A program made the translations under genes and the position numbers. From a phage: a stretch of DNA of 64,000 bases. Location: the sequence record PZ386970.1; one strand, given 5' to 3'. Shown here piece after piece: positions 14,335-57,857 of this stretch. The notes under the pieces were generated by a model, which ran no database searches, was not told the origin of the DNA, and saw nothing but the letters and a program-made list of their open reading frames with translations. Within the stretch, counting starts at the first letter, position 1. The number at the start of each line of letters is the position of its first letter.

Positions 14335-14372
14335 ATTGAATTCACTATACTCCATCCATCCTTGGATGTACA
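14335..14372 (-). promoter_or_regulatory. early-type promoter (family B variant, palindromic spacer)
   Basis: TTGTACA, spacer GGATGGATGGAG, TATAGT. Confidence 0.45.
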
Positions 14373-14375
14373 ACA

Positions 14376-14870
14376 TTAATTTAGAATATTAACCACAGCA
14401 CTACGTGGAACTACACTAAAATCACCTGCATGAACAACGTTCAGAAGTTCAACACCGTCTTCAATCCACTGATCAGTTACCCATCCACTCACTGGTCCTG
14501 CGAACGGACGACGAATTGAAACAGCTTTACACAACAAATCAGTAGGCTCAATAGGCTTAATCAGAGTACCGTACATACAAGCGATATCCATATCAAAGTG
14601 GAGACCATCTTTAACAGGTGCTTCTTCAATCAACAGTTCAAAGTCGGTGCTTGGAAGGGCGGTAGTAGAAATTGTACCGTATGAATTTTTAATTTCTAAG
14701 AATAACCAAGGGCCTTCAGCTTGTTTGATGAAGTTAACAATAGTGAAACTATTACCTTGAGTGGCACCTAAAATTTCACAAAACTTTTCATAAGCTCGCA
14801 CTGAAGCACCGTACCAGTTGATTTGTTTTTCGTCTTTCAGGATGTAAGTAGCCGTAGTATTGATATTCAT
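14376..14870 (-). CDS. hypothetical protein, paralogue 3 (from MNINTTATY)
   Basis: C-terminal GWVTDQWIEDGVELLNVVHAGDF matches paralogue motif; start trimmed downstream of promoter. Confidence 0.5.
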   Translation of the reverse strand: MNINTTATYILKDEKQINWYGASVRAYEKFCEILGATQGNSFTIVNFIKQAEGPWLFLEIKNSYGTISTTALPSTDFELLIEEAPVKDGLHFDMDIACMYGTLIKPIEPTDLLCKAVSIRRPFAGPVSGWVTDQWIEDGVELLNVVHAGDFSVVPRSAVVNILN

Positions 14871-14894
14871 AATGGTTTCCCGTTTGGTTAAGAT

Positions 14895-14930
14895 AGAAAG
14901 ATTATACTCCAACCATCCTTGGTTGTAAAC
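14895..14930 (-). promoter_or_regulatory. early-type promoter (family B): GTTTACAACCAAGGATGGTTGGAGTATAAT
   Basis: near-identical copy at 57820-57857; related copy upstream of gene 43. Confidence 0.55.
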
Positions 14931-14935
14931 TGTTT

Positions 14936-15613
14936 TTATCGCTGTTTTACACTTAACGGGTCAGGATTCTCAGGGACATCTTCAAGGCCAAGCGCATAAC
15001 GCTGAGCATATTTTAACATCAAAATATCTTTAGCACAATCATGAATACTATCATGGGCAACGAATCCTTTTAGCGTACCCATCGGTAATGGACACATACT
15101 TAATCCTCGTGTCAACGAGTAAGCTTCGATTGCTGTACGAATATCACGTTGAGCCCAGAATTTAACCGGTTCTAATTTATCAGTATCAATATCTGGTTCA
15201 AGAACACCTTCATCACGATAGAGGTCACGAATCAAATCGACCAAGATTGGGAAGTCAAAGCTCATACCACGGCACCACATCTGTGATTTCCATTGGTCAA
15301 CTTTATTAGCTCGGCAATAGTCTAAAAAGATTTTAATGCCTTCAAGCGTAGTGACATCGTCTTCAGACGGGGCCAAGTTTTTACGTGCTTCAGCCGATTG
15401 TTCTTTCCACCATTTCATAGTGGATTTAGCGAAAACTCGCTTCCCTTTCTGAGAAGCTAAATTAAATTTAATTCGTTTACCTCGTTGAACAAGTTCTTCA
15501 AATGATTCAACAACTTCAGGGTCGGAATTATATGCAATAACCGCAAGGTCAATAACAGCCGCTTTTGATGTATTGCCGAATGTTTCAAAATCTATAATAA
15601 CATCAGTGCTCAT
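14936..15613 (-). CDS. dexA: exonuclease A (DnaQ-like 3'-5' exonuclease), DexA
   Basis: 225 aa, N-terminus MSTDVIIDFETFGN...AAVIDLAVIAY with DxE motif; position next to dda. Confidence 0.75.
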   Translation of the reverse strand: MSTDVIIDFETFGNTSKAAVIDLAVIAYNSDPEVVESFEELVQRGKRIKFNLASQKGKRVFAKSTMKWWKEQSAEARKNLAPSEDDVTTLEGIKIFLDYCRANKVDQWKSQMWCRGMSFDFPILVDLIRDLYRDEGVLEPDIDTDKLEPVKFWAQRDIRTAIEAYSLTRGLSMCPLPMGTLKGFVAHDSIHDCAKDILMLKYAQRYALGLEDVPENPDPLSVKQR

Positions 15614-15622
15614 AATTTTCTC

Positions 15623-16936
15623 TCAAATAAAATGGACGTCAAAACGACCACGAGTTGTGCCTACATACAATAATTGTTTAGCTAATTCTGAATCGGCATA
15701 ATGGATACACGGTGTATAAACAAAGGCCGTGTCAACAGACATACCTTGGGCCTTATGGAAGGTTGATACTGGTAGTGCCTTCACCTTAGTGAACATACGT
15801 TTAGCATCCCAGAATTCGCTCCATGGAGCTTTACCACCTTTATTCCAAAATTTGTATGTTTCTGCGGTCTTAGCCAAAAACAAATTGAATTTATAAAGCT
15901 CTTCTTCGGAAGAAATAACCTTTATATCCTCGCGGACATATTCTTCGTCATCCCCATATGTTTCTACTGTAAGATTCCAGTATCGTATCATATATTCGCC
16001 TGAAACACCACGTGCTTTAACAAATGTAGACGTTTCTACAGCATCTCGAATACGAACGAATTGCCCGTTATTGAAAAGCATTTCAGTCATATTTTTGCCA
16101 TCTAGCTTGTACGTCTTAGTAAACGGCTCTTGTAGAACAATGACTTCGTCTTTAATAAATGGCTTTTCTGTTTCAAGAAGTTTTCGGCGAATAATTGAAT
16201 TTAACTTGTCCACCGACTTATTTGTGAATGCCATCATTCGATTTTCGAAAAGGTCTTCAGGAGTTTTAACGACGTTAAAATAGTTCATCATATACGATTT
16301 AAGGTCTGTATATCCATGAACACCGTGTCCATCAACTACTTTATCGTAAATCCATTTGCCATTACGAATATCAGTCGCAACATCAATAATTGGTGCATTG
16401 CTACGTTTAACTTCTGTAAGGTTGCATTGCACGAAGTCTTTGTGAGTGAAGAAAGGACTTAGATACGCAGTTGATTCGCCTGGGTCGACCGGACGAATCT
16501 GACATCGGTCACCAATTCCAATTACTGTACACCATTTAGGGATACTAGCTAACATTATTTTAAACAGAGAACGGTCACACATTGACGCTTCATCAAATAA
16601 CAGTACACGGCACAAGGCTAAGTCGGGAACCTTTTTCTGTTCAAACAATACGTTTTCTTCGTATGTAGTTGGGTTGATTTTAAGAATGCTATGAATAGTC
16701 GATGCTTCTTGACCCGCAAGTTTGCTTAGAACCTTTTTAGCAGCATGTGTAGGGGCTGCTAAAATAATACCTGATTCTCCAGAAGAAATAAGGGCTTCAA
16801 CGATGAATCTAGTGAGGGTTGTTTTACCTGTACCAGCAGGCCCATTAATAGTTACGTGATGTTTCTTTTCTTTAATAGCGTTCATAACAACGTTGAAGGC
16901 GTTTTTCTGGCCTTCAGTCAAATCATCAAATGTCAT
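15623..16936 (-). CDS. dda: Dda DNA helicase (SF1B)
   Basis: 437 aa, MTFDDLTEGQKNAFN...INGPAGTGKTT Walker A; matches T4 Dda. Confidence 0.9.
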   Translation of the reverse strand: MTFDDLTEGQKNAFNVVMNAIKEKKHHVTINGPAGTGKTTLTRFIVEALISSGESGIILAAPTHAAKKVLSKLAGQEASTIHSILKINPTTYEENVLFEQKKVPDLALCRVLLFDEASMCDRSLFKIMLASIPKWCTVIGIGDRCQIRPVDPGESTAYLSPFFTHKDFVQCNLTEVKRSNAPIIDVATDIRNGKWIYDKVVDGHGVHGYTDLKSYMMNYFNVVKTPEDLFENRMMAFTNKSVDKLNSIIRRKLLETEKPFIKDEVIVLQEPFTKTYKLDGKNMTEMLFNNGQFVRIRDAVETSTFVKARGVSGEYMIRYWNLTVETYGDDEEYVREDIKVISSEEELYKFNLFLAKTAETYKFWNKGGKAPWSEFWDAKRMFTKVKALPVSTFHKAQGMSVDTAFVYTPCIHYADSELAKQLLYVGTTRGRFDVHFI

Positions 16937-17244
16937 CGTAAAGTCCCTGCAATTGGAATACTAACAATACGGCCTGTATCCAGGATTCGTTGATACAATT
17001 TTTGCGTCTCCGCATCTAGTTTAATGTGTTTCATTTCAAGCTTATTAAACCAGAACTTACGCGGAGTTTCGACCATTCTTAGAACTCCCATTTTTAAATC
17101 TGTTTTATACTGGGTTTTCAAAGTATCGAAAACTTTATCTGCAATATCCTTTCTAAAAAATACTGCAGGACGATGCTCATCAAGTGGAACCGGGACAGTA
17201 AATCCTTCCATATCTCGATAAACTATTGCATATACATAAACCAT
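16933..17244 (-). CDS. hypothetical protein (103 aa), dda.1 position
   Basis: ATGA-coupled to dda. Confidence 0.5.
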   Translation of the reverse strand: MVYVYAIVYRDMEGFTVPVPLDEHRPAVFFRKDIADKVFDTLKTQYKTDLKMGVLRMVETPRKFWFNKLEMKHIKLDAETQKLYQRILDTGRIVSIPIAGTLR

Positions 17245-17246
17245 AA

Positions 17247-17993
17247 TTAACCTTTAATAAGTTGGAATAATGATGCGCTAAGTGGTAAGCCACGTTTCAA
17301 TTTTAATTTACCAATGAAACCGATCTTTTCAAAACGTTGCAGACCTTGGATAACTTTATCATATGTATCGAAAAGCGATTCAGCGTCAGTTAATTTAGTT
17401 TTAGTTTTCCAGTCAGAGCCTTTAAGAAGAACGTTGAGTTTAGTAAGTTCATGGCCTTCTGCTTGATGTGAGCCATTAATGCGTGCTTTCAAAGCAACAA
17501 TTCTAAGTTTAGATTCGTTAGATAAAGGTTGATTTTTCGTCATGTTCGCCATATGCTTAACACGATTTTCACGTTTTGCTCGGATTTTTAAAATAGTACC
17601 ATAAACCTTTTTGATTTGGGCCCATTTCTTCTCGTCGAGATTAAGTTTCTCTACTTTACGGGCAGAAGGATTAGCGATACGCCTTGCAATGGCATCACGT
17701 TTCTCAATAAGTTCTTCTAATGTTAAATCAGAACGAGCAGTGTTATATTTTTTCTTAACTGGGATAACATTACCTTTAATGTAGCCGATATCGTTATTAA
17801 AACGTTCTAAGGATAATTTCTCACCTTCAACAGAGTTATTGAAAGATTCACCTGAGTAAGCGCAGACCTTTTGATCAAGAATGTTTTTAAGGTAATTAAA
17901 GTCTAAGTTAAAATCCTTAGAGCGTCTCTTCGCAGAAGCTCTGGTGTGGTCAAGACGACGATTGATTTTGTTAATTTTATTATTTGATAACAT
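17247..17993 (-). CDS. putative HNH-family endonuclease (248 aa)
   Basis: KDFNLDFNYL...CAYSGESF...LSLERFNNDIGYIKGNVIPV resembles phage HNH_3-type nucleases; sits in the T4 srd slot. Confidence 0.45.
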   Translation of the reverse strand: MLSNNKINKINRRLDHTRASAKRRSKDFNLDFNYLKNILDQKVCAYSGESFNNSVEGEKLSLERFNNDIGYIKGNVIPVKKKYNTARSDLTLEELIEKRDAIARRIANPSARKVEKLNLDEKKWAQIKKVYGTILKIRAKRENRVKHMANMTKNQPLSNESKLRIVALKARINGSHQAEGHELTKLNVLLKGSDWKTKTKLTDAESLFDTYDKVIQGLQRFEKIGFIGKLKLKRGLPLSASLFQLIKG

Positions 17994-18034
17994 AATATTT
18001 TCCTCTGTCTTACGGACGTTAAGGTCATTTAGCT

Positions 18035-18071
18035 GATAAGTCTATAATATCATGCCCTCAGGTAGTGTACA
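18035..18071 (-). promoter_or_regulatory. early-type promoter (family A, -35 variant GTGTACA)
   Basis: TATTAT then AGACTTATCAGC. Confidence 0.45.
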
Positions 18072-18146
18072 CTCTTTTTTCATAAAATGCTTTAATTTTT
18101 TATGTGTTATAATGGTTCTGAGTTCCATCCGGTTATTCCAATTCAG

Positions 18147-18755
18147 TCAGTAACTGACAATAGACAGATTCCAGATTGTATAACGTCCATTTTGAATAAT
18201 AGAATCTACACGCAGTGTAGTCCCTATAGGGAGCATAAATTCACATTCGTCAGATATAAGTCTAGCATTAGACCGTCTTGTCGCTTCAGGGAAAGCTCCA
18301 TTGAACTCACAAGATGGCGCAGCCAGAATCATGTTAAGCATATGTTCACGGAAGTTGAAAGCAAATGGTGCATCTTTGATGCAGAACATATTAAATGTTC
18401 CATAAAAATTATACGAAGCAAAGTTACGTGCTACACTGAACACTGGGCTGAAGCTCATTACTCTGTCAAATTTAATAATACTACCAATGCCTTTATCATC
18501 GAGTGTGGCCATAGTTTTCTTAGAGATTCCACGATACATTGTCTCAGGAACAGAAGACGTCCAATTTCTACGAACAATTGAACTTAAATCTTGTTGGATG
18601 CTATCAGGCTTGTTTTCCATACACTGCCACAGTACACTTTGTTCAATGTCGCTGAATTGACTATCAATTTCATACTGCAATTCATCTTGATATTCAGGGT
18701 TTTGAGCACGACGAACCATTTCTTCAATTTCACACTCGTTATACGGCATAAACAT
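18147..18755 (-). CDS. modA: ADP-ribosyltransferase, ModA-like
   Basis: R-S-E triad context: MYRGIS, SFSPVFSVARNF (STS-like), ECEFML; paralogue of next gene; synteny. Confidence 0.6.
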   Translation of the reverse strand: MFMPYNECEIEEMVRRAQNPEYQDELQYEIDSQFSDIEQSVLWQCMENKPDSIQQDLSSIVRRNWTSSVPETMYRGISKKTMATLDDKGIGSIIKFDRVMSFSPVFSVARNFASYNFYGTFNMFCIKDAPFAFNFREHMLNMILAAPSCEFNGAFPEATRRSNARLISDECEFMLPIGTTLRVDSIIQNGRYTIWNLSIVSY

Positions 18756-18769
18756 TTAGGTTTCTCCTG

Positions 18770-18813
18770 TGGTTGATAAAGGTATAGTATCATCATCGGA
18801 AGAGTTTGTAAAC
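18770..18813 (-). promoter_or_regulatory. early-type promoter (family A)
   Basis: GTTTACAAAC, 18-nt spacer, TACTAT. Confidence 0.5.
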
Positions 18814-19394
18814 TAAAAATTCAACATCTTTAAGTGAATGATTTTGTATACTCGAGACAAAGGGTCATACTCTAACTCTTCGATTTCCACAATCTCAAAT
18901 CTAGAGATGCCTGAGACCATGTACTCTTGTTCAGATTCAATCATATCTAGGACGTCAACACGCGTTTCTTCCATAACATGCTTAGGATTCTTTCCGGCAA
19001 GTACAATGTTAACCATGTTTTGGTAGTAATCAAAAATGAATGGAGCATTCCTGAGACTAAGAATAGTGTACGTCTGATATTCCCATCTCCCAGAGAATTG
19101 ACGAGCTGTACTGAAATCAGTTGTGAACGATGTTACTCGTCCAGGAGACCAATGGCATCCAACAGAAAGAAGGGAAAGACGTTCTACTTCTTCTGGAGTT
19201 ACACCACGGTAGAGTTCTACTGGTACTGTAGAAGTCATATGCTTACGAACAAGATGGTCTAATTCATAGTGGAAATCTGGGTCTTCCTTAGAATCAGTGC
19301 AAGCCCAGAGAATGTTTTGTTCTTGGCGGGTGAATTTACTATCAATCAGATTTGTTAGGTATTCGCGTTCTTGAAGTTCAGATTGACATGTCAT
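18813..19394 (-). CDS. modB: ADP-ribosyltransferase, ModB-like
   Basis: LYRGV, SFTTDFSTARQF, EQEYMV motifs; paralogue of ModA-like gene. Confidence 0.6.
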   Translation of the reverse strand: MTCQSELQEREYLTNLIDSKFTRQEQNILWACTDSKEDPDFHYELDHLVRKHMTSTVPVELYRGVTPEEVERLSLLSVGCHWSPGRVTSFTTDFSTARQFSGRWEYQTYTILSLRNAPFIFDYYQNMVNIVLAGKNPKHVMEETRVDVLDMIESEQEYMVSGISRFEIVEIEELEYDPLSRVYKIIHLKMLNF

Positions 19395-19409
19395 GATAGA
19401 CCTCCATTT

Positions 19410-19450
19410 AAAGATAAGTCTATCATAACACGAGAGGAGGGAATGTAAAC
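19410..19450 (-). promoter_or_regulatory. early-type promoter (family A)
   Basis: GTTTACA, 17-nt spacer, TATGAT then AGACTTATC. Confidence 0.5.
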
Positions 19451-19610
19451 TACTTTTTAAGCTTTCCTACTAAAGGACCGTCAGGACCGGGTTGTTCTAA
19501 CATGAATAAAGATGCTTTAAAAAGCAATGTCAACCCTTTCACCATTCGATACCATGTCTCAAAGTCTTTTTCCTTGATTTCTAGTAAGAATTTCTCTTTA
19601 AATTTCTCTT

Positions 19611-19799
19611 TCATTTCCAAGGACTCCATGGCGGAGGGTCGTCATAATAAGAGGCAAGGTCTTTCAGGGCTTCAACAGGTAAACTAAAGCCGTGTCGTTG
19701 TATAATACTATCTAGTTCATCAACAAGTTCACTACGATGCACTTTAGGAGCCTTGACTTCAGGCTCGTCAAACATACTCATAAGGTCCATATTATTCAC
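19611..19799 (-). CDS. hypothetical protein (62 aa)
   Basis: ORF only. Confidence 0.4.
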   Translation of the reverse strand: MNNMDLMSMFDEPEVKAPKVHRSELVDELDSIIQRHGFSLPVEALKDLASYYDDPPPWSPWK

Positions 19800-20256
19800 C
19801 TAAATAAAAACTAGCAGGTTCAGAGAATGTTTCTAGTGCTACACCTTTTGTCTTAAAAAATTTCCAAATAGCTCGTTGCAAATGGGTTAAATCTGCTAAT
19901 GATGTAATAAAGTATTTTTTGGCAAAATACTTATGGTCTCGCTTTTCAAACAAGTCTAAACGCTTTTCAGGATTCACATAAACGGCATTTTCCGTAGATT
20001 CATAACCTAAGTCCTTTATGCCTTCTTCAAGACTAAACGGAGAATTTTTAGAATGAGTAATAGCTCCAACTCGTTCTACACGAATTTTGTAACCTTTAGG
20101 AATCTGCAATTTGTAGAATTCTTCTACAATATATTGCGGATTATTTAGACTTTTGTTAATGAGAATAGCTATTTCTAGTGGAGTCTTATCTTCTACCGGT
20201 ATATGTTTAAATGACTTGGCTTCAAGCAAATACATTTTAAATAGCATAGCATCCAT
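19792..20256 (-). CDS. hypothetical protein (154 aa)
   Basis: ATG ORF; mrh/srh region by synteny. Confidence 0.5.
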   Translation of the reverse strand: MDAMLFKMYLLEAKSFKHIPVEDKTPLEIAILINKSLNNPQYIVEEFYKLQIPKGYKIRVERVGAITHSKNSPFSLEEGIKDLGYESTENAVYVNPEKRLDLFEKRDHKYFAKKYFITSLADLTHLQRAIWKFFKTKGVALETFSEPASFYLGE

Positions 20257-20435
20257 TATAATTTCCTCGATGGTTCACCCATATAAAGTTTTACAATACG
20301 TTCGCCTTCATCTTCGACGAGCTTTTCTTCATGTTTCTGGAATTCTTTAGCCATATTCTCTTCAAGAACATCCAGCCAATCTTCTGGACCGACACCATCG
20401 TCCCAGCTTTTAAACCATTTTACTATTCTGTTCAT
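20256..20435 (-). CDS. hypothetical acidic protein (59 aa)
   Basis: manual translation MNRIVKWFKSWDDGVGPEDW...; TAATG-coupled at both ends. Confidence 0.35.
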   Translation of the reverse strand: MNRIVKWFKSWDDGVGPEDWLDVLEENMAKEFQKHEEKLVEDEGERIVKLYMGEPSRKL

Positions 20436-20635: not shown

Positions 20636-20648
20636 ACCTTCGCCTGGT

Positions 20649-20876: not shown

Positions 20877-20894
20877 ATTGTTCTCCTCTTGAGT

Positions 20895-20934: not shown

Positions 20935-20942
20935 TCTAGAAA

Positions 20943-20968: not shown

Positions 20969-20977
20969 TTAAATTAT

Positions 20978-24775: not shown

Positions 24776-24818
24776 TTTGATAGGACTACTATACTATAGT
24801 CCATCTATAATGTAAACA
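24776..24818 (-). promoter_or_regulatory. early-type promoter (family A)
   Basis: GTTTACA, 18 nt, TATAGT then AGTCCTATCAAATC. Confidence 0.5.
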
Positions 24819-36012: not shown

Positions 36013-38724
36013 TCAAAAATCGAACATATCGAACAGAGATGCTTTCTTCTCGTAATCGAGTTTCGCTGCTGATGTGAATCCTTCAAGTGGTTTAATAAAT
36101 GTCTTCTCAAGGAGAACAGTGTAGTCCATCCAATGAAGTACGTCGTCTTTAATTAAATCTGTGATTTCAGTACCAGAAGGCCATGCGATACATTTATCAC
36201 CGAATGGGTTTCCATCACGTAAAGGCAGAACGTATACCTTTTCGCCTTCTACAACTTGTGGAGCATCAATATTACCTTTGATAGCCCGGTTATATGTCAG
36301 AATTCCACGAATATGGAACGGGCATTTAGGACCAGGGAATCCACCAACGTCATATTTAGCAATGTTATTCGCAGAAGATACCGACGCGATGCTAATATAA
36401 TTCAATTGACGGAATTCTTTTTCAAACTCTTTAAAATATTCTTGTAATGATTCTTCACCTTCTTGAAGCATACGACGAATACATTCTTTAAGAGCTTTCT
36501 GTACTGCTTTAGGGGTCGAAGATTTCTGAGTCTCTAGACCCATGATTTTGAGTTTAGGCTCAGCGTAACGAGTACCTTCCATATCCCACACGTTTAATGC
36601 ATAACGTTTCTTACCAGTCCAGAATCCACCAATACCTTTAGAACCAAGCGGAGGCCCAGCGATAGCTTCTCGGTCCATGAACATCAAATGTTGCTTATTA
36701 TTCATGTATTCGCACATTTCACGGAAACCTCTATCAATAGCAGGTTCCATACGTTCACGAGCGAACTTATCTAAGAAGTCTACCCAATGGTTGGTATCAC
36801 GGAATTTAGATTCACCAACCTTATCGATAATTTTATCAGCAGATACGTAAATAGAGTCTGTATCACCATAAAGAACGAAAGCTTCGCCTTCTGTACCACA
36901 AACTTCATTCAGATATTCATTAACTTTACGTTCAATCCACTGTAAAGCCATTTGCCCGAATGTTGTGATTGCAGTAGCATTACGCAAATCATAATAACGG
37001 AACCAAACGTTACCAAGTGCACCATAAAGTGAGTTGATAAGCAATTTACGGTTAATTTGTGCAGTCATACCTGCAACTTCAGTACGTTGAGCTCTAAACA
37101 GCATTTCATTAAGAGATTTAGCAGACAACTTTTTAATCTTTTCTTTAATCTCATCACTGAAGTCGAAACGATAATCAACATCTAATGGTTCGTCAACAGA
37201 AAGATTAGGATTATGCAATGCCTCTTTAATTATTTCACCATTACGTTGAGCTGCAAGCATGTAACCTTTATGTTCTTTACGTTGATTAAAGACCTTAGTG
37301 ATTTCAGTTGGAACTACACCATCACGGTCTTTATAATACATCATGCCGTTAGGAGAGCAACTGTACACATCTGAAGGACGTTCAGCAACAGCGTTAATAT
37401 AATCATGCAATGGAGCTACTTTAAACGTTCCTGCTATTGTTTCTGGGCTAATATTCACTTGGCGAATAATACTTGGATACAGAGATGTAAGGTCGAAACT
37501 CATTACATATTTGTATCGATTTGGAATAGGTTCCTTAACAAAAGCGCCTGGGTAAGGTTGAACTGGATGCGAACGACCTTGTGGAATCACCTTGTTCTGC
37601 TCTTTAAGGCTATTAAAAATAATAGCATCCCATGTTTTAATTGGGCTAAACACAGATTGAATCTGTATCTTAGCATAATAACCCATGTCCAAGCTCAAGT
37701 TAATGAACTGGCGTTTAGCATCAATTTGCAATACACGATACACGTCGATAATGTTATAAGAAATATATCGTTGGTGATTGCTTTCACGAAGCTTAGAAAT
37801 AGGGCCGTCGTATTTCAGTTTACCAACGTTCAATTCAAATTCTGAAATGTAATCCAGAGAATATGACGGTTGATTGGTAAAAGAGAATTTTTTGTAAAGG
37901 TCAATGTAATCAAGAACAGAGATACCGAACAATGTAATGATTTCACGAGAACCATACATGTTTTCGATAACTTTAACACGAGTTTTACGATGTGGCGATA
38001 AACGTTTCGCAGTAGATTCGCCAAAAATATTCTTGATTCGGTTATACACATATGGAATATCAAATGACTCAACGTTCCATCCAGTCAAAATGACAGGAGT
38101 TTTCTGTTGCCAGAAGTTGAGATATTCCATCAACAATTCTTTTTCGTTATCGAACGGCATATAAATGATTTTATCGATAATTTCAGATGGAACTTCATCA
38201 CCGCCTTGTTCTTGAAGCTTAGCCGCAATTTCGATAGACCATTCTTCTACATTACCATATGGAGAATTCAATAGATCAAATACGTAGAACCTGTCGTCAA
38301 TTGAGTCATAATGGGTGATAGCATCAATCGGATGTTTTGCTTGTGACGGCTCAGGGAACCCATCCGGAGATGTTACTTCGATGTCGAAGTTAGCCACACG
38401 AATTTTTGTATGGTCGTATTTGATTTCATAGTTATAAGTGTCAGACAAATACGCCAATTTGAAATCGTCCATGCCAAGTGCTTCAAGTCCGATATCTTCC
38501 ATGCGTTTAATCCATTGGGAGGCATCACGCATATTAGCGAACAACTTACGAGTACACGGCTTACCGTAGATATCGAAATATTTCGTAGCCTGACTTTCTG
38601 GACAATGAGCAAACAGTGATGGTTTATATTCTACTTCGCGAGTACGTTCACGGCCATTAGAATCGATGTAACGTTCAAAAATTGAATCACCAATCTGTTC
38701 AACCGTTAAGTAAAATTCTTTCAT
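36013..38724 (-). CDS. 43: DNA polymerase gp43 (family B)
   Basis: 903 aa; exo motifs FDIE and YNIIDV, pol motifs DLTSLYPS, KILINSLYG, YGDTDS. Confidence 0.95.
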   Translation of the reverse strand: MKEFYLTVEQIGDSIFERYIDSNGRERTREVEYKPSLFAHCPESQATKYFDIYGKPCTRKLFANMRDASQWIKRMEDIGLEALGMDDFKLAYLSDTYNYEIKYDHTKIRVANFDIEVTSPDGFPEPSQAKHPIDAITHYDSIDDRFYVFDLLNSPYGNVEEWSIEIAAKLQEQGGDEVPSEIIDKIIYMPFDNEKELLMEYLNFWQQKTPVILTGWNVESFDIPYVYNRIKNIFGESTAKRLSPHRKTRVKVIENMYGSREIITLFGISVLDYIDLYKKFSFTNQPSYSLDYISEFELNVGKLKYDGPISKLRESNHQRYISYNIIDVYRVLQIDAKRQFINLSLDMGYYAKIQIQSVFSPIKTWDAIIFNSLKEQNKVIPQGRSHPVQPYPGAFVKEPIPNRYKYVMSFDLTSLYPSIIRQVNISPETIAGTFKVAPLHDYINAVAERPSDVYSCSPNGMMYYKDRDGVVPTEITKVFNQRKEHKGYMLAAQRNGEIIKEALHNPNLSVDEPLDVDYRFDFSDEIKEKIKKLSAKSLNEMLFRAQRTEVAGMTAQINRKLLINSLYGALGNVWFRYYDLRNATAITTFGQMALQWIERKVNEYLNEVCGTEGEAFVLYGDTDSIYVSADKIIDKVGESKFRDTNHWVDFLDKFARERMEPAIDRGFREMCEYMNNKQHLMFMDREAIAGPPLGSKGIGGFWTGKKRYALNVWDMEGTRYAEPKLKIMGLETQKSSTPKAVQKALKECIRRMLQEGEESLQEYFKEFEKEFRQLNYISIASVSSANNIAKYDVGGFPGPKCPFHIRGILTYNRAIKGNIDAPQVVEGEKVYVLPLRDGNPFGDKCIAWPSGTEITDLIKDDVLHWMDYTVLLEKTFIKPLEGFTSAAKLDYEKKASLFDMFDF

Positions 38725-38730
38725 TTAATT

Positions 38731-38751
38731 TCCTTTAGACGAGTTATTGTC
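38731..38751 (-). promoter_or_regulatory. gene 43 translational operator-like element: short hairpin with loop AAUAACUC next to the SD
   Basis: minus strand GACAAUAACUCGUC then AAGGAAAUUAA-AUG; loop resembles remembered T4 gene 43 operator loop. Confidence 0.4.
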
Positions 38752-38771
38752 TTTTGTTTGTTGATGAACTT

Positions 38772-38800
38772 ATTATACTCCAAATGGGACCGAAGTCCCA
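38772..38800 (-). promoter_or_regulatory. promoter for gene 43 (TATAAT -10 of the family B repeat; -35 overlaps terminator hairpin)
   Basis: TATACTCCAA motif shared with family B promoters. Confidence 0.4.
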
Positions 38801-38805
38801 TTGCT
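38785..38805 (-). terminator. UUCG-tetraloop hairpin (UGGGAC-UUCG-GUCCCA) 3' of regA
   Basis: stem-loop followed by UUUGG. Confidence 0.45.
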
Positions 38806-48296: not shown

Positions 48297-48673
48297 TTTA
48301 CCGCCTTAACAATTTTCAGGTCAGCGAATTTTTTCTTACGTTGATTTTTCATACGACGGATAGTCTTTTCAGAGATTTCATGTTTCTGATAAGCTTTAGA
48401 TTCAACACCAAATGCAGCAACGTCAAATTCAGAAAGAATATATTGTACTAGAATTTCACGAATAGAATTACGTCCAATTTTCTGGTCGTGTTTTTGCATG
48501 ATTTCATAAAGACGGAATTCCCACGCGTCAAGAACTTGAGGAGTAACAATATTGCCGGATTCCAGAAGAGCAACAACTTTATCGAAAGCGAAAGAATTAA
48601 CTACGTTTTTGATTTTAGTAGACATATTATTTTCCTCGGTTATTTTATTATCCAACGAGAGAATTATACTCAT
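48293..48673 (-). CDS. hypothetical protein (126 aa)
   Basis: ORF only. Confidence 0.45.
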   Translation of the reverse strand: MSIILSLDNKITEENNMSTKIKNVVNSFAFDKVVALLESGNIVTPQVLDAWEFRLYEIMQKHDQKIGRNSIREILVQYILSEFDVAAFGVESKAYQKHEISEKTIRRMKNQRKKKFADLKIVKAVK

Positions 48674-48691
48674 CTCCCAAGAGTTTGTATA

Positions 48692-48931
48692 TTATTTTTT
48701 AAGCATGAAAAGTAAGTAATTTGTATCACGTGGAGTAATATCAACACCCATATCAAAGATGCCTTTATAGATTGGGTATTTGTTTTCGGTTGTATCGAAG
48801 CTGAAACTATTTCCATCACAACTAACAGTAATAGCATCTGTTAAAATGTCATACTCAACCCTAACAATTGAATCCCCAATTTTAACGTCGAGGTGTTTTT
48901 TGAATTTGATAAAATCTAATTCTTGGGCCAT
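48692..48931 (-). CDS. hypothetical protein (79 aa)
   Basis: ORF only. Confidence 0.45.
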   Translation of the reverse strand: MAQELDFIKFKKHLDVKIGDSIVRVEYDILTDAITVSCDGNSFSFDTTENKYPIYKGIFDMGVDITPRDTNYLLFMLKK

Positions 48932-50983: not shown

Positions 50984-51454
50984 TTAATCATGTTTCCACA
51001 CCCCATCGGTATTTGACCAAAGTCGCTGATTATCTGATCCTCGCCACAGCTTTTTGGTCGGAAGATTTTTCTCATACTTCCCATCAATAATAACATCAAC
51101 ATATTTAAGCATTTCTAGCTGTTTAATATCTTCAAACTTATATCCTGTCCACAACCAAATGCTTTTATTAGGATAAAGATTTTTTACTGTTTGAACAATG
51201 CAATGAATAACATCTCGGTTATCAGGATAGAGAGGGTCACCTCCGGTTATAGTCAATCCTTCTATATAATCATTATTCAAACATTCAATTAATTGTTCTA
51301 GTGTTTCACCAGTGAATGGAATACCATTTCTAGCATTCCATGTTGATTTATTATAACACCCTTCGCATTTATGCAAACACCCTGTAACGAAAAGAACGAC
51401 CCTACAACCAGGGCCATTCACAAAATCGCAAGGATAAAACCTATCATAATTCAT
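50984..51454 (-). CDS. nrdG: anaerobic ribonucleotide reductase activating protein NrdG (radical SAM)
   Basis: 156 aa; CLHKCEGC (CxxxCxxC) radical-SAM motif, GGDP. Confidence 0.85.
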   Translation of the reverse strand: MNYDRFYPCDFVNGPGCRVVLFVTGCLHKCEGCYNKSTWNARNGIPFTGETLEQLIECLNNDYIEGLTITGGDPLYPDNRDVIHCIVQTVKNLYPNKSIWLWTGYKFEDIKQLEMLKYVDVIIDGKYEKNLPTKKLWRGSDNQRLWSNTDGVWKHD

Positions 51455-52751
51455 TGGTGTTTAACCCTATGCATGATTTCTTTATTTTTACCGAGATTAA
51501 ATCCGCGTTCGTTCGGATTTCCCAAATAGCCGCATGTTCTTCTTATGGTGTTCATCTTTTTAGGATCAGTTTCTCCACAAACTGAACAAACAAATCCGTT
51601 TTCAGTAGGAGTCATTTCATGAGTACTTCCGCATGTAAAACATTTATCCACTGGCATATTAACACCAAAATAATCTAAATGTTGTGCAGCATAATCCCAG
51701 ACAGCCTCAAGACCCTTTAAATTGTTTTTCATATCTGGAAGTTCAACATAAGAAATGTGACCACCTGTCGCAATGAAATGATATGGCGCTTCACGAGAAA
51801 TCTTTTCAAATGGAGTAATATTTTCTTCTACTGAAACATGGAAACTGTTAGTGTACCAGCCTTTATCGGTAACATCTTTTACACTTCCATATTTTTCTGT
51901 GTCTAGTTTACAGAAACGATAACAAAGGTTTTCAGCAGGAGTAGAATACAAACTAAAAGCAAATCCAGTTCTTTCAGTCCACTGTTTAAGATGAGCATTC
52001 ATTTTAGTTAAAATTTCTTGCCCAATATCACGACCAACAAGAATATTCAATTCATGAATACCAATGTATCCTAAAGACACTGAACTTCTACCATTTTTAA
52101 ATAACTCAATTATGTCATCATCAGGTTTAAGACGAACCCCGAATGCACCTTCTTGGTAAAGAATAGGAGCAACAGTCGCTTTAACTCCTTTTAAGGAACT
52201 AATTCTACACATCAAAGCTTCAAAACATAAATCCATTCGTTCATTGAATAATTCAACAAATTTCTGTTCATTGAACTGTGTTCCAATATAAGAATCTAAT
52301 GCGATACGAGGAAGATTCAGTGTTACAACACCGAGATTATTACGTCCATCAAGAATTTCATTACCAGTCGAATCTTTCCATACACTCAAGAAACTACGGC
52401 AGCCCATTGGAGAAACAGGAACAGATGAACCGGTAATAGCTTTATTATTCTTAACAGAAATAATGTCAGGATACATTCTTTTGCTTGCACATTCTAACGC
52501 AAGTTGTTTAATATCATAGTTCGGATCATCTTTATAAAGATTAACACCCTCTTCAACAAACATAACAAGTTTAGGAAAAATAGGAGTTATCCCATCACGA
52601 CCAAGACCTTTAATACGATTTTTCAGAATTGCTTTCTGAATCATTCGTTCAGTCCAGTCAGTTCCCGTACCAAATGTAATTGTTACAAAAGGCGTTTGTC
52701 CATTAGAGCTGAAAAGTGTATTTACTTCATCATTATATTCAGCATGAGTCG
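51451..52751 (-). CDS. nrdD: anaerobic ribonucleoside-triphosphate reductase NrdD, exon 2
   Basis: C-terminal CxxC...C and glycyl-radical region (RTCGYLG); 5' boundary predicted from intron terminal G and reading-frame continuity. Confidence 0.75.
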
Positions 52752-52756
52752 CAAAT

Positions 52757-53527
52757 TCATGCCCGTTTATATGAAACAACAAAATTTGGATAGTCCATAG
52801 ATATGCAACGTTCTTTTATAGTGCTAGGATGAAAATTTAGCGCTTTAGCTGCTTCTATATAAGACGTATACTTAATACCGTCAACAACCACATATTCAGG
52901 AACTTTATGAATAGTAGTCTTAATACTCAAAACAAGAGGATGAGTTTCGACTTCACTTTCAGTGCAATTTAAATATTCCGCTGCTTTTTTAAAACTTCTA
53001 AAAGTTTTATTTTTAAGCTTTATCGATACTTGTTTTTTACTTTTTCGACTATTGATATTATTTTGCACATGTTCCTTAGATCTTCCATTTTTAGCATAAT
53101 ATTCAGCTACAGAAGATTTTATATTGTTTTTATGAGATTTGGATAACACTTTACCCTTATGAGCATCTCTTAATTTTTGAATATGTTCTTCAGTATCCGG
53201 ATGTTTATAAAACTTTTTACCGCCTATGGATTTATTTAAACATTTTTTGCTATAAAAATATTTACGTATGACCTCTTCTTCATGTTTTAATGCATCTTTA
53301 TAACTATCAAATGTTTTTAAAATTATCCATTTAGTAGGTGTATCAGTTTTTAAGCGTTCATTTATATACTTAGATGACGTTGTGTAAGTTTTCCAGTTTG
53401 TGGGCTTGTTTTTAATTGTTCTAAATTTTTTATAACCGATATAAATGTCGCCATTAGAAAACTTAACTAAGTATGTAAATGCGTCTTTATCTTTTATTTT
53501 AGTACAACGTCTTTTTATCCATTTCAT
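52757..53527 (-). CDS. intron-encoded GIY-YIG homing endonuclease (I-TevII-like)
   Basis: 256 aa; FTYLVKFSNGDIYIGYKKF GIY-YIG core, NUMOD-like repeats, C-terminal HTH-like IKYTSYIEAAKALNFHPSTI; own RBS GAGGTG. Confidence 0.75.
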   Translation of the reverse strand: MKWIKRRCTKIKDKDAFTYLVKFSNGDIYIGYKKFRTIKNKPTNWKTYTTSSKYINERLKTDTPTKWIILKTFDSYKDALKHEEEVIRKYFYSKKCLNKSIGGKKFYKHPDTEEHIQKLRDAHKGKVLSKSHKNNIKSSVAEYYAKNGRSKEHVQNNINSRKSKKQVSIKLKNKTFRSFKKAAEYLNCTESEVETHPLVLSIKTTIHKVPEYVVVDGIKYTSYIEAAKALNFHPSTIKERCISMDYPNFVVSYKRA

Positions 53528-53556
53528 TGTTTCACCTCGTATTCATAAGATAATCT

Positions 53557-53564
53557 TATTTATA
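53557..53564 (-). promoter_or_regulatory. late promoter TATAAATA inside the intron, upstream of the homing endonuclease ORF
   Basis: exact TATAAATA about 30 nt before the ATG; T4 intron endonucleases are late-expressed. Confidence 0.5.
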
Positions 53565-53776
53565 CAAGATGACTGCTGCATGTCGCCATGCAGATTAGAC
53601 TATATCTTCATCTTTCGATGCCGGCCGTTTCGAATAGCATTAGCTTCTATTCTACACCGTTACATTCATCACGGTTAGTCGTTAGGCATTTAGTTCAAAA
53701 GAACATTTAGCACGGGATTGTCTTACTAGAGAGGTTCCCCGTTTAGACCGGTTTTACATGAGCCTGAATTAAATTA

Positions 53777-54314
53777 ACTCATACGCCTGAAATGCATCGT
53801 ATACATCTTTTTCTGTTTTAGATTGAGCATAATTCAACGCATCAGCGATTTGCCATTTTTCTGCATCCTCAATATGTTTTGCATAGGTGCGTTTAACATA
53901 AGGAGAAAGTACTTTATCTACATTTGCAAAAGTCGTTCCGCCGTATTGATGGGAAGCAACCTGTGCAGTAATTTGTGCCATAATTGCAGTAGCAACGCCA
54001 ATTGATTTAGGAGTTTCAATCTGTGCATTACCTAGCTTAAATCCATTTTCAAGCATTCCTTTTAAATCTACTAAACAGCAATTAGTAAAAGGAAGAGCAG
54101 GGGAATAATCAATATCGTGCACGTGAATAATTCCGCTTTCATGCGCTTTCATAATAAAAGACGGGACCATATTTTTGGCAATGTGTTTAGACACAATACC
54201 AGCCATAAGGTCCCGTTGAGTTGGAAAAACACGAGAATCTTTATTAGCATTCTCGTTCAAAAGATCTTTATTAGTTTTATGAATTAATCCTTCAATTTCT
54301 TTTTCAATTTTCAT
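53777..54314 (-). CDS. nrdD: anaerobic ribonucleoside-triphosphate reductase NrdD, exon 1
   Basis: 181-aa ORF ends in a stop just inside the intron; exon ends at U of GAGU predicted by P1 pairing. Confidence 0.75.
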
Positions 54315-54784
54315 TTTAAACTCTTTCTAAGCTGCTTTTTGAATGAAGCTATTAATTGTGGTTTAGTATCAGATTCATTATATTCAAATCCTCTTTGAAG
54401 CATCTCAGCCATCATTTCCTCTTTACCTAAACGAGAAAATTCCTTTGATTTATCTCCAACAAAATTAGGATGGATATTATTATCAGAATAATCTTGTTTC
54501 AAATAAGCAAGAAGAGCTTCAAGCCATTCTAGGTAGTCGACATCACGGCCTTTAAGACCAGAACGGTTGAACTTATGCTTCATTTGACCTTCTGCTGCGT
54601 TGCACAGATTACAGAGTAATCCACGAACTCTACCGGCTTTTGGCCCGTTTAATTCGTGGTCGTGGTCAAGATGGTTACCTTGAACATCAGGGTCTAATTC
54701 ACGGTGGCAAATAGGACACTTACCGTTCTGTGCATCATAAAATTTTTGTTTTTCTTCTTTATATTTTGCGCCTGATAATAACAT
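54311..54784 (-). CDS. 49: endonuclease VII (Holliday junction resolvase), gp49
   Basis: 157 aa; CPICHRELD...HLDHDHELNGPKAGRVRGLLCNLCN matches T4 endo VII. Confidence 0.9.
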   Translation of the reverse strand: MLLSGAKYKEEKQKFYDAQNGKCPICHRELDPDVQGNHLDHDHELNGPKAGRVRGLLCNLCNAAEGQMKHKFNRSGLKGRDVDYLEWLEALLAYLKQDYSDNNIHPNFVGDKSKEFSRLGKEEMMAEMLQRGFEYNESDTKPQLIASFKKQLRKSLK

Positions 54785-54819
54785 GATAAACCCTTACCTT
54801 AAATAGATAAGGGTATTTA

Positions 54820-55245
54820 TTAACTTAAACGTCTTTCTAAATATTCAATGTATTCTGCGGCTGCTTGCATCAGGTTACCTTCATATCCGTCATTATTTTC
54901 TTGTCCGGCTAATTTAGCTAATGCATAAGAAATTCGTTCACCTTCGAATTCACCAAGTTTACTACCTAGCACATCCGCAATATCAGCCGAATCAATTTCT
55001 TCGAGTTCATCTATTGAATGGGATTCCCAGAAGCACCAAAGAGAAGTATCACGGTCATAGATGCAAAGTTTCTCACCTGTGTTCAACATCACTTCGTTAA
55101 TGCCATGGTCGCCATAACCATCCTCGGTAGTAGTACCAATTACCTTGATGATTGTTCCTTTCTTTAATTCAGGAAACTTGGCTTGTAGTTCTTCATCTTC
55201 TTTAACAATCTTGAACCATTTACCGCGAGTTTCAGAAATATTCAT
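54820..55245 (-). CDS. hypothetical acidic protein at the pin position (141 aa from MNISETRG)
   Basis: synteny only; track start overlaps upstream ORF and was trimmed. Confidence 0.35.
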   Translation of the reverse strand: MNISETRGKWFKIVKEDEELQAKFPELKKGTIIKVIGTTTEDGYGDHGINEVMLNTGEKLCIYDRDTSLWCFWESHSIDELEEIDSADIADVLGSKLGEFEGERISYALAKLAGQENNDGYEGNLMQAAAEYIEYLERRLS

Positions 55246-55246
55246 A

Positions 55247-55444
55247 TCAATATTCTCTATAAAAGTTACGATGAGAACGTTTAGCTTTGCGAAGCTGACG
55301 TTTAGTAGGACGAACTGTAAATGGTTGTCCAGAGAAAAAATTCGGATCGGTTTTAATAAGCAAATACCAATCATGCTTGCCATTTTTTAATAAACGGTAC
55401 AATAATTTAACTTGCATAATAATCTCTTCCCATTTCCATATCAA
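55247..55444 (-). CDS. hypothetical small protein with basic VRPTKRQ tail (65 aa)
   Basis: C-terminal FTVRPTKRQLRKAKR shared with ORF 25561-25773. Confidence 0.4.
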   Translation of the reverse strand: MIWKWEEIIMQVKLLYRLLKNGKHDWYLLIKTDPNFFSGQPFTVRPTKRQLRKAKRSHRNFYREY

Positions 55445-55545
55445 TTAATTCATTTATTGAAGGTTCATCATAACACGTTTCTTCGTCGTTGTAAACTGTT
55501 TCGACGTCTGGCTCGACTGTCTCCCATCGAGCGGTATACCATGGT

Positions 55546-55881
55546 TTAACCCCGGAGTTTATTGAGCTCTTCATAATCAACCCAGGATTCTAGCCCAGAT
55601 GGCAAAGCTGATTCAACGTTCCACAGAAGCTCTTCGATGGCTTGTAGGCGATTATATTCTTCAACAGTAATAGTAACCATTGTTTCAGGCTTTTTAACCA
55701 TCATGTCATTCATCAGAATGTACAGGTCTTCACAAACAGCCGGGTCGTCCCATGTCCATATTTCAGCATCTCGAACCAATGAAGTCGGAATCGAATTTAA
55801 AACTTCAAGCTTAGTAGGAGCGTCAGGGCCGAGAAGAGTTGCTACAAATTTATATGCTTTGGCGAAATCAATATCGTTCAT
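55546..55881 (-). CDS. hypothetical acidic protein (111 aa)
   Basis: ORF only. Confidence 0.45.
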   Translation of the reverse strand: MNDIDFAKAYKFVATLLGPDAPTKLEVLNSIPTSLVRDAEIWTWDDPAVCEDLYILMNDMMVKKPETMVTITVEEYNRLQAIEELLWNVESALPSGLESWVDYEELNKLRG

Positions 55882-56141
55882 TTAAAATATTCTCGCAGTT
55901 GGTCAAATCCACCAATGTGACTTCCGTCAGGAGCAAACACTTGAGGCATAGTCAATCCAACTTGTGATTCACGTCCAAGCTTAACCAGAAGCTCAGCAAT
56001 TTTCTCATCGTCGAACACACCTTTTTCTGGCATAACATTAATGAATTCGAATGGCTGTTTCTTAACAGTCAGCAATCGTTTCGCATTATCACAATAAATG
56101 CATTTATGAATAGTAGAGTCATACCCGTACACTTTAAACAT
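55878..56141 (-). CDS. nrdC: glutaredoxin/thioredoxin NrdC
   Basis: MFKVYGYDSTIHKCIYCDNAKRLL...TMPQVFAPDGSHIGGFDQLREYFK near-identical to T4 NrdC; 87 aa. Confidence 0.85.
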   Translation of the reverse strand: MFKVYGYDSTIHKCIYCDNAKRLLTVKKQPFEFINVMPEKGVFDDEKIAELLVKLGRESQVGLTMPQVFAPDGSHIGGFDQLREYFK

Positions 56142-56547
56142 TATTTTTCCTTTCATCGATTAAATATGCAATGCCAAATACAATACATGTAATAAAACCT
56201 GTGATACAGATAGAAACCAACAACACTGTACCAAAGAACCAAATCAAGTTATCTTTAGTAGTTTGTTTGATATCCATCTCACGAATTTCTATAGCTATCG
56301 TATCACCTTTATTCAGAAGCGTATAAAACGATGGTGATACATGCCTGTCAAAAACTCGACCTTGTTCATCTTTATAAACTGCAATAAATTCCAATTTAGA
56401 ATATTTTCCTGTAGATTGGCCTGAGATTAATTCCACTACCTCCACAGGAATTACTTTAGTTTCCATGTAAGTATTCTGGCTGTTCCAAATGAATGGAATG
56501 ATGGCAAAAACTAAAGCTGCGATAAAACAACGAAGGCTATATCTCAT
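56134..56547 (-). CDS. membrane protein (137 aa)
   Basis: N- and C-terminal TM helices. Confidence 0.45.
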   Translation of the reverse strand: MRYSLRCFIAALVFAIIPFIWNSQNTYMETKVIPVEVVELISGQSTGKYSKLEFIAVYKDEQGRVFDRHVSPSFYTLLNKGDTIAIEIREMDIKQTTKDNLIWFFGTVLLVSICITGFITCIVFGIAYLIDERKNNV

Positions 56548-56852
56548 TATAATGTTCTCTCAAATTTGTGGAAGCATTTACGGCATTTCAATTTCAAGTT
56601 ATCAGTGGTCCAGTTAACCAGTTGGACTTGGATAGTTCCACATTCCGGGCATGGGTGTTTTGCTGCCGATTTGGCAGCATTTTCACGTCGTTCAACCATT
56701 TTCATTATTTCGTTCCATGCCGGAGGAACGAACTCTTCTTCACCGTGGATTTTATCTCGCTGAACAAATTCAATCTTTGAACTATCGTCAATAAACTTAA
56801 CCAAGCCATGATTAGTGCTCATATCAATATCCTCTAAAAGACGTAGTTTCAT
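56547..56852 (-). CDS. zinc-ribbon protein (101 aa)
   Basis: CPECG...CRKC motif. Confidence 0.45.
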   Translation of the reverse strand: MKLRLLEDIDMSTNHGLVKFIDDSSKIEFVQRDKIHGEEEFVPPAWNEIMKMVERRENAAKSAAKHPCPECGTIQVQLVNWTTDNLKLKCRKCFHKFERTL

Positions 56853-57799
56853 TATAACACCTCAATGGCATTTCGTAAACCGTCCGCTTTCGCATTCAGA
56901 GCTTTTAACGATTTAGTCTGTTCTTTAATCTGGGCTTCGACTTCTTTCAGACGAGATTTGAGGTACTCACGTTCTTCGCTCAAGTTGTCAACTTTTTCTA
57001 CTTTAGGTTCTTTAATAGTCTTAAGTTTATACTCGTTAGGGTTCTTCAGCTTAATTCGGGTGCGAGAACTGAATAACATTGAACCGTTATCTTCGGATTC
57101 GTCGAACGTTTCAACAACATCCATAGTCTCTAACAATGTAATAAGTTTATAAGACAACGAACGAATAGTTTTGTTGTGCTTATTAATTTCTTCGGCTTTC
57201 ATGGTACCGAGATTACGTGAGTAATAATAAGGAACCTGGATATTAATTGATAATGATGCGTTACCATTACCGGTTGGTTTGAATACTGCAGTAACCCAAT
57301 CTTTAACATGAACTTTATTTGTACGACCATCACCACCTGTGAATAATTTACGAGAATGTTTAAAAAGCATATTCACTTGGTTATTGAATTCACAAGCAAA
57401 TTTATCAGCAAATTTAGTTTCAGGAATGGTAGAGAACCAATCGGCTAAATGGGTCTTTTTAACATCGTTAATAATAGTAAATTCAACTAAATCTGATTTA
57501 GATTCCACTGATTTGAAGCATGGCTTCATAAAGTTTTTAATATTATCGCGAGCTACAGTAGAAGATAATAAACGAGAACGTTTGAACCATTGAAGCAGTG
57601 TCCCTAATGAATGAGAATACGCATTCTGAGTATCTTTACAGATATGATTTTCTTGGTCTGTGTATGTACCAAAATCTCGAAGAATACCACTTACTACATC
57701 TCGGTGTGGAACATCAAATCCTAGTGTACCAGTGGCGCGCTGAGCATGAACGTTAGCGATAAGACCGGCAAAGTATTCAATGTAATGTGAACGTGTCAT
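56852..57799 (-). CDS. hypothetical protein (315 aa) with C-terminal coiled coil
   Basis: ATG ORF downstream of family B promoter. Confidence 0.5.
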   Translation of the reverse strand: MTRSHYIEYFAGLIANVHAQRATGTLGFDVPHRDVVSGILRDFGTYTDQENHICKDTQNAYSHSLGTLLQWFKRSRLLSSTVARDNIKNFMKPCFKSVESKSDLVEFTIINDVKKTHLADWFSTIPETKFADKFACEFNNQVNMLFKHSRKLFTGGDGRTNKVHVKDWVTAVFKPTGNGNASLSINIQVPYYYSRNLGTMKAEEINKHNKTIRSLSYKLITLLETMDVVETFDESEDNGSMLFSSRTRIKLKNPNEYKLKTIKEPKVEKVDNLSEEREYLKSRLKEVEAQIKEQTKSLKALNAKADGLRNAIEVL

Positions 57800-57819
57800 A
57801 ATATTTTCCTCTCGTTAAG

Positions 57820-57857
57820 ATAGATTTATTATACTCCAACCATCCTTGGTTGTACAT
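57820..57857 (-). promoter_or_regulatory. early-type promoter (family B): TGTACAACCAAGGATGGTTGGAGTATAAT
   Basis: near-identical to 14895-14930. Confidence 0.55.

Follow-up and report, generated by a model that had tools for sequence, protein, structure and literature searches.

The 64,000 nt stretch of phage DNA in sequence record PZ386970.1, here called the window, contains three copies of a promoter-like element with a palindromic spacer, which we refer to as family B. With a probability of roughly 0.7 these elements are paralogous early promoters of the T4 type that sit in cassettes of the PeSL type, and they would represent the RB69-group (Mosigvirus and Dhakavirus) counterpart of the portable promoter/stem-loop linkers known from phages such as RB49 and phi1. 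What the analysis established directly was the anatomy of the elements, their paralogy, their potential for base pairing including one compensated change, and insertion/deletion (indel) junctions that coincide exactly with the repeats in many phages. The window itself derives from a Mosigvirus, an RB69-like coliphage of the T4 type, and is approximately 96-97% identical to, e.g., p000v and ATK47. The gene names used for the sites are those of RB69.

The 30-mer GTTTACAACCAAGGATGGTTGGAGTATAAT was found as an exact copy at positions 14901-14930 (site 2). The copies at 57828-57857 (site 3, starting with ATGTACA) and at 14344-14373 (site 1, which reads TTGTACATCCAAGGATGGATGGAGTATAGT) differ from it by two and by five mismatches, respectively. 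An earlier note on this DNA had listed three such sites, and their positions were confirmed; the sequence it quoted was the reverse complement, since the elements and the surrounding genes are all encoded on the minus strand. In 100 dinucleotide shuffles of the window, no match to the 30-mer with ≤3 mismatches occurred (chance expectation 0), and a scan of the window with up to 10 mismatches did not reveal any family-B copy beyond the three. Site 2 is located between the stop codon of dexA and the start of motB.1 (14376..14870, minus strand), which codes for 164 aa with a C-terminal domain of the motB family and fills the interval between sites 2 and 1. Site 1 lies between the stop codon of motB.1 and the start of motB (13858..14313, minus strand; 151 aa, Pfam motB), the gene it would serve. 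Site 3 is placed between nrdC.6, the stop codon of which ends at position 57857, and the homologue of nrdC.3 (56852..57799, minus strand; 315 aa) that it would serve.

All three copies show the layout of a sigma-70 promoter with a spacer of 17 bp (9/17 G+C) between the hexamers. Site 2 has TTTACA as -35 (14924-14929), the spacer at 14907-14923 and TATAAT as -10 (14901-14906), and scored 11/12 for the -35/17 bp/-10 arrangement. Site 3 (-35 TGTACA at 57851-57856, -10 TATAAT at 57828-57833) scored 10/12 and site 1 (-35 TGTACA at 14367-14372, -10 TATAGT at 14344-14349) 9/12. The distance between the stop codon of the upstream gene and the 7-mer at the start of the element is 22 nt for dexA, 3 nt for motB.1 and 0 nt, with overlap, for nrdC.6, and the flanks are A/T-rich. 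Downstream, a purine run resembling a Shine-Dalgarno (SD) sequence is present (AGAGAGAG or GAGAGGA, and the weaker ACGGGAAA at site 2), and the ATG of the following gene is found 27-31 nt past the -10 hexamer.

In T4-type early promoters the consensus comprises GTTTAC (-36 to -31) and, at about -40 to -44, a UP-like stretch rich in A. Both features are present at site 2, where GTTTAC is preceded by the A-rich gataaaaaca, while the sequence is TTGTAC at site 1 and ATGTAC at site 3, and the flanks there are less A-rich. The TG/GT-rich extended -10 of this promoter type is lacking in family B, which has GGAG at this place and no TG at -15/-14. Most other early promoters of the window combine TGn with an imperfect -10, whereas family B has the perfect TATAAT and no TG extension. 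It is plausible from these motifs that family B forms a distinct class of promoter strength, as the earlier note had proposed as one of two options.

Early promoters of RB69 were previously predicted by a hidden Markov model (HMM), which reported 58 of them (Nolan et al. 2006, PMC1524935). The four family-B copies of RB69 are in that list as Pe:8387, Pe:8947, Pe:51019 and Pe:52042, and the promoter call is therefore not new. Pe:8947 is the orthologue of site 2, and Pe:8387, with a low HMM score of 6.2, that of site 1. Nolan et al. provide a table of HMM coordinates, and searches of their main text revealed no description of the shared spacer, the dyad or a link to indels. As far as sequence goes, the view that these sites are promoters was supported by the hexamer scores, by the placement between a stop codon and an SD sequence with ATG, and by the predicted early promoters at the orthologous positions of RB69. 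From consensus and earlier prediction, the family-B sites would act as early promoters read by the sigma-70 RNA polymerase of the host.

The link to gene cassettes became apparent when the genes next to the copies were compared among related phages. The metagenome contig L050 lacks exactly positions 14371-14900 of the window, which comprise motB.1, with an overlap of 27 bp at the junction. In phage PTK motB directly follows dexA, and the repeats at sites 2 and 1 exactly delimit the loss of motB.1. In both cases the junction joins the upstream flank of site 2 and the A-type dyad to the downstream leader of site 1. A deletion of motB.1 was also inferred for G2285 from a one-piece BLAST match. 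As a separate observation, motB.1 of RB69 (L022, 3377-3873) is annotated as 132 aa plus a separate open reading frame (ORF), ORF012c, with an apparent frameshift near residue 123, while the window, JN02 and others have a single intact ORF of 164 aa.

A second variable cassette is found at site 3. The gene nrdC.5 (DUF7235, about 300 aa) is located between nrdC.6 and nrdC.3 in most Mosigviruses, among them RB69, mogra and L042, and there it is bracketed by two copies of the element: 3a (ATGTACA...), the promoter of nrdC.5, and 3b (GTTTACA...), the promoter of nrdC.3. The window lacks nrdC.5, and its site 3 is a chimera with the upstream half of the 3a type and the downstream leader of the 3b type. 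A contiguous nrdC.6|nrdC.3 junction with a single copy was present in 21 of the 154 records. The sequence following TATAAT at this junction occurs in at least four haplotypes, namely aaatct (window), gaatct (L059, AV110), gaacct (G2285) and ctttct (AV115, F2), and the last three were also found as 3b haplotypes in phages that carry nrdC.5. This diversity indicates several independent exchanges or, alternatively, later recombination. Since an nrdC.5-like gene (orf86) is also present upstream of the family-B copy of the Dhakavirus JS98, the presence of nrdC.5 is probably ancestral and the window would represent the deleted state. In addition, copy 3b of RB69 has the immediate flanks of site 2 (aaaaca...ctttctatcttaac), which suggests ectopic conversion between copies that are 42 kb apart.

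In the GenBank phage collection the 30-mer was found at 589 places in 216 phage records. Mosigvirus genomes have 2-4 copies, while Dhakavirus genomes (JS98, JS10 and others) have a single, diverged copy of 90-93% identity. In JS98 this copy lies upstream of nrdC.4, which is homologous to nrdC.3 with 24% identity. We considered that the promoter had been copied along with a duplicated gene, and rejected this: motB.1 and motB have only a patch of 36 aa in common, nrdC.5 is unrelated to nrdC.3, and nrdC.4 and nrdC.3 are remote relatives. Gene duplication therefore does not account for the repeat, which precedes genes with a remote relationship or none at all.

The spacer was described in the earlier note as partly palindromic. 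This holds true, in a different register: the real dyad is CAACCA-AGGA-TGGTTG rather than CCAAGGATGGTTGG. Its general form CA(A/T)CCA-AGGA-TGG(T/A)TG, with a 6 bp stem and a loop of 4 nt, occupies columns 6-21 of the 30-mer and places the stem-loop between -35 and -10, wholly within the spacer. The dyad reads CAACCA-AGGA-TGGTTG at site 2 (14910-14925) and at site 3 (57837-57852), and CATCCA-AGGA-TGGATG at site 1 (14353-14368). The third stem pair of site 1 is thus changed on both sides (A:T to T:A) with the pairing kept. RNA folding of either strand gave -6.9 to -7.2 kcal/mol with z values of -2.3 to -3.5. Pairing in the helix amounts to 95.5% over 11 distinct variants; four of the pairs are invariant, and one varying pair is U:A in eight variants, A:U in two and G.U in one.

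A function as intrinsic terminator found no support, as a U-tract is absent on both strands and the sites were called neither by a terminator scan nor by TransTerm. Wobble variants were considered as a guide to the functional strand; a T-to-C change keeps a G.T pair on the plus strand only and an A-to-G change (L025) on the minus strand only, and because the variants favour opposite strands the functional strand could not be inferred from them. A scan of IMG/VR in which the stem arms were left free gave 17 matches, all of them chance matches on unrelated contigs. Rfam had 0 hits over the whole window.

Inverted repeats are not restricted to family B. A perfect stem of ≥6 bp is present in 8 of the 17 early-promoter cores of the window compared to a frequency of 7% among 40-nt windows drawn at random (p=8e-6). 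When family B was left out, 5 of 14 cores still had such a stem (p=0.002). The T4 promoter of early type between motB.1 and motB is the positional orthologue of site 1; its flanks are conserved, and its spacer is unrelated in sequence and yet again contains a dyad. This T4 motB promoter is homologous to the window sites at 2628 and at about 48690, and in this trio (n=3) 100% pairing is maintained through double changes at 3 of 6 pairs. The arms are GGGACC/GGTCCC, GAGAGC/GCTCTC and GGGAGA/TCTCTC, all of them complementary. With dyads of unrelated sequence in many early promoters, it is a structural dyad, and not one particular sequence, that constitutes the recurring feature.

The trio belongs to a third promoter family (family C) of the form ACAAACTCTTG-arm-(A/T)GAGTATAAT-arm, located at about 2579-2635 and about 48643-48699 (minus strand) of the window and at about 7180-7220 of T4 (NC_000866). 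Many of the ordinary early promoters of the window, family A, were seen to have inverted repeats of 6-8 bp around the -10 hexamer, e.g., at 63911-63934, 59464-59491, 24783-24802 and 2592-2615 (minus strand), with arms such as TAGGACTA..TAGTCCTA (8 bp each), AGGTCTAT..ATAGACCT and TGAGAGCA..TGCTCTCA. Here the 3' arm precedes the likely start site, so that hairpin formation would be limited to read-through RNA or to DNA.

The earlier note had also pointed to a related site upstream of gene 43, which is located at 36013..38724 on the minus strand. This relation turned out to be partial. The site in the regA-gene 43 spacer (38772..38801, minus strand) shares only the 12-mer TTGGAGTATAAT (38772-38783) with family B; GTTTACA is missing, and another hairpin takes the place of the palindrome. 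This hairpin (ATGGGAC-TTCG-GTCCCAT, 38784-38801, minus strand) is of the C(UUCG)G type. The site does not appear in the lists of early promoters, middle promoters or terminators of RB69 given by Nolan et al. A middle promoter dependent on MotA was rejected, as there is no correctly oriented TGCTT box and the site is missing from the published middle promoters. That a strong C(UUCG)G hairpin is placed likewise just 5' of the shared GGAGTATAAT is suggestive of a stem-loop role for the family-B dyad. Downstream of the regA-43 hairpin, positions 38729-38765 (minus strand) read AGAC-AATAACTC-GTCT followed by AAAGGAAATTAAATG, which has the form of the published translational-operator hairpin of RB69 gp43.

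We propose that each family-B copy would provide an autonomous early start for the non-essential gene downstream of it, i.e., motB.1, motB and nrdC.3, and nrdC.5 in relatives. Owing to an identity of 26-30 bp among the copies, homologous recombination of the phage could lead to exchange between them, by which the intervening gene would be deleted or inserted. Such an exchange would leave a single, chimeric promoter that should be functional, so that the neighbouring genes would still be correctly expressed. Site 3 of the window is likely to be a chimera of this kind after loss of nrdC.5. The stem-loop would most likely act in read-through RNA from the upstream gene, either as a weak attenuator or as a 3'-end structure. 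Such a role was proposed for PeSLs, and one PeSL of RB49 was tested for it (Arbiol 2010, PMC2839356). In family B the hairpin is weak, lacks a U-tract and was not called as a terminator, and any attenuator role would therefore be modest.

PeSLs were defined in RB49 and phi1 by an upstream stop codon in A/T-rich surroundings, an early promoter of the sigma-70 type, a stem-loop, an SD sequence and an ATG. Five positions of the stem-loop were described, among them the one between -35 and -10. Promoter and terminator activity was demonstrated for selected PeSLs, and neighbouring PeSLs recombine, which leads to deletions and mini-circles (all Arbiol 2010). Comeau et al. 2014 (PMC4122927) extended the PeSLs to T4/PST and KVP40/nt-1. 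Phages of the RB69 group were neither covered in the former study nor analysed in the latter.

Family B resembles the RB49/phi1 PeSLs in the sigma-70-type promoter with about 17 bp between the hexamers, in a stem-loop in or next to the promoter, in the upstream stop codon within an A/T-rich stretch just 5' of -35 and in the SD sequence and start codon on the 3' side. The likeness extends to the repeats in hyperplastic regions, which flank variable genes and of which a single, chimeric copy is left in phages without the gene, as seen here for motB.1 and nrdC.5. There are also clear differences. The RB49 PeSLs have stable, G/C-rich stems (GGGG...CCCC) and are proven terminators, whereas the family-B stem has 6 bp, -6.9 kcal/mol and no U-tract. 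The sequences are unrelated, with TTGACA as -35 in RB49/phi1 and the T4-type (G)TTTACA in family B. Mini-circles and promoter/terminator activity of RB49 were determined experimentally, while the promoters of family B are predicted ones. The PeSLs of T4/PST and KVP40/nt-1 share with family B the T-even consensus TTTACW-N17-TAYWAT, have weaker and more variable stem-loops, and occur beside indels among close relatives in the same hyperplastic regions, including nrdC.x. The T4/PST stem-loops lie just upstream of the promoter and have the form AGNA-loop-TCNT, in contrast to the family-B stem-loop, which is inside the spacer and has another sequence. Family B fits a PeSL subclass with a spacer stem-loop, and families A and C would fit a subclass in which the stem-loop overlaps -10.

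Several observations weigh against the assignment of family B to PeSL-type cassettes. No published mapping of transcription starts was found for RB69-type phages. The pair that closes the loop is broken (A:U to A.C) in the RB69, ATK47 and JS98 variants, and selection for pairing is backed by only one compensated change within family B. By our own estimate a complementary double difference at partner positions would arise by chance in about 2% of cases, and the change could also come from quasipalindrome-templated mutation without selection. The hairpin is short and weak, a U-tract is missing on both strands, and the family-B sites were passed over by the terminator scan of the window as well as by TransTerm in RB69. 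An ungapped comparison, with 2 of 68 variable columns in the spacers against 36 of 96 in the flanks, was rejected as a sign of special constraint since the flank count is inflated by indels; in a gapped control the spacers of ordinary early promoters were equally near-invariant among these phages, which are 95-97% identical. Whether each event was a deletion or an insertion was deduced, rather than observed, from the state that prevails among the phages and from Dhakavirus as outgroup. Finally, an identity of 26-30 bp between copies is short for recombination.

Part of these points would equally suit a palindrome without any function of its own. The copies would then be recent paralogous promoters homogenized by gene conversion, the dyad and its compensated variant would be incidental products of chance or of quasipalindrome-templated mutation, and the indels would have arisen as they do with any repeat. 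The flanks of site 2 on copy 3b of RB69 point to such conversion between distant copies. Invariance of the spacer within a site is no higher than in ordinary promoters, the helix has a single compensated pair and, in a common variant, one broken pair, and the weak hairpin does not resemble a terminator. Against this, the enrichment of dyads is significant over independent early promoters whose spacers are unrelated, and pairing covaries in the homologous trio that includes T4. Furthermore, the element survives the split between Mosigvirus and Dhakavirus and stands before proteins that are only 24% identical. We regard a neutral-repeat origin of the dyad as the most serious alternative, though an unlikely one.

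Still less probable is the operator that the earlier note had suggested for the palindromic spacer. A dimeric phage or host protein would bind CAACCA-N4-TGGTTG and co-regulate motB.1, motB, nrdC.5 and nrdC.3, e.g., for shut-off. The same 17-bp spacer indeed recurs at four loci and across two genera, in contrast to the varied spacers of other early promoters, and the genes downstream include two members of the MotB family, annotated as modifier of transcription. A dyad between -35 and -10 is at the classic location for a repressor, and spacer operators of phage or lac-type repressors have the same dyad symmetry at this place. Unlike in such operators, the variation of the family-B arms keeps the pairing and not the half-site sequence, and sister promoters have unrelated dyads. 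The only difference of the arm variant is a complementary double change that alters both half-sites, which is a poor fit to independent half-site recognition. The unrelated dyads in many early promoters and in the T4 orthologue point to a structural rather than a sequence-specific requirement. No functional theme joins the genes in question, and no candidate binding protein was identified. We found no positive evidence for the operator claim, and the unrelated dyads together with the pairing-preserving change are better explained by a PeSL stem-loop than by a sequence-specific operator. It is similarly doubtful that the near-invariant spacer is a protein recognition site in the wider sense, be it the operator of a small early regulon or the target of a dedicated helper or recombinase by which cassette exchange would be guided to these promoters. 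A helper or recombinase acting on PeSL stems is a possibility raised by Arbiol et al. (PMC2839356).

The least probable alternative, and at best a faint possibility, is an RNA-processing module in which the endoribonuclease RegB would cut read-through transcripts of the upstream gene at GGAG just 3' of the stem, uncoupling the downstream cistron and leaving a hairpin-protected 3' end: RB69 encodes a RegB, every copy has GGAG unchanged and the motif likewise comes after the gene-43 hairpin, and GGAGUAUAAU matches part of the strong intergenic consensus GG*AGRAYARAA (review PMC3014915), but consensus positions 5 and 10 do not match, the stem takes up the first G of GGAG in a pair and RNA is protected from RegB by secondary structure, and GGAG may equally reflect the G/T-rich stretch 5' of -10 in T4 early promoters.

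Further variable segments were noticed in the window. Indels are also bordered by other early promoters: positions 60966-61178, which contain an ORF of about 72 aa between two family-A promoters, are missing in L042, where the junction has a promoter overlap of 65 bp. Another small segment (61307-61603) is absent from L038. The gene order near motB differs between T4 (dexA-motB.2-motB.1-motB; NC_000866, 7661-8218) and RB69-type phages (dexA-motB.1-motB-ORF010c-motB.2; 12843-13424 of the window). In both, the promoter preceding motB.2 starts with GTTTACTTC, as if promoter and gene had moved as one cassette. The gene nrdD is present as two ORFs, 53769..54314 and 51451..52782, which cover positions 1-141 and 145-562 of the Pfam NRDD profile. 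It is split by an insertion of about 1 kb (52731-53778) with an ORF (52757..53527, minus strand) for a homing-endonuclease-like protein with GIY-YIG and NUMOD1 domains. L042, L049 and L052, all related contigs, do not have this insertion, which resembles a mobile intron or an endonuclease insertion of the kind known in nrdD of T4; Rfam did not call a group I intron at this place.

The PeSL-type interpretation does not involve a new mechanism, and the prediction of the promoters was already published; the finding itself is real and beyond chance. It would account for the variable presence of motB.1 and nrdC.5 in annotations, and the promoters may be natural, expression-ready insertion points for phage engineering. 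The many isolates provide population evidence, in that the same 30-bp promoter is found at both ends of two variable gene cassettes, apparently as the result of repeated events. The idea of PeSLs as portable promoter/stem-loop linkers, by which accessory genes can be swapped while the neighbouring genes stay undisturbed, would thereby be extended to the RB69 and JS98 groups.

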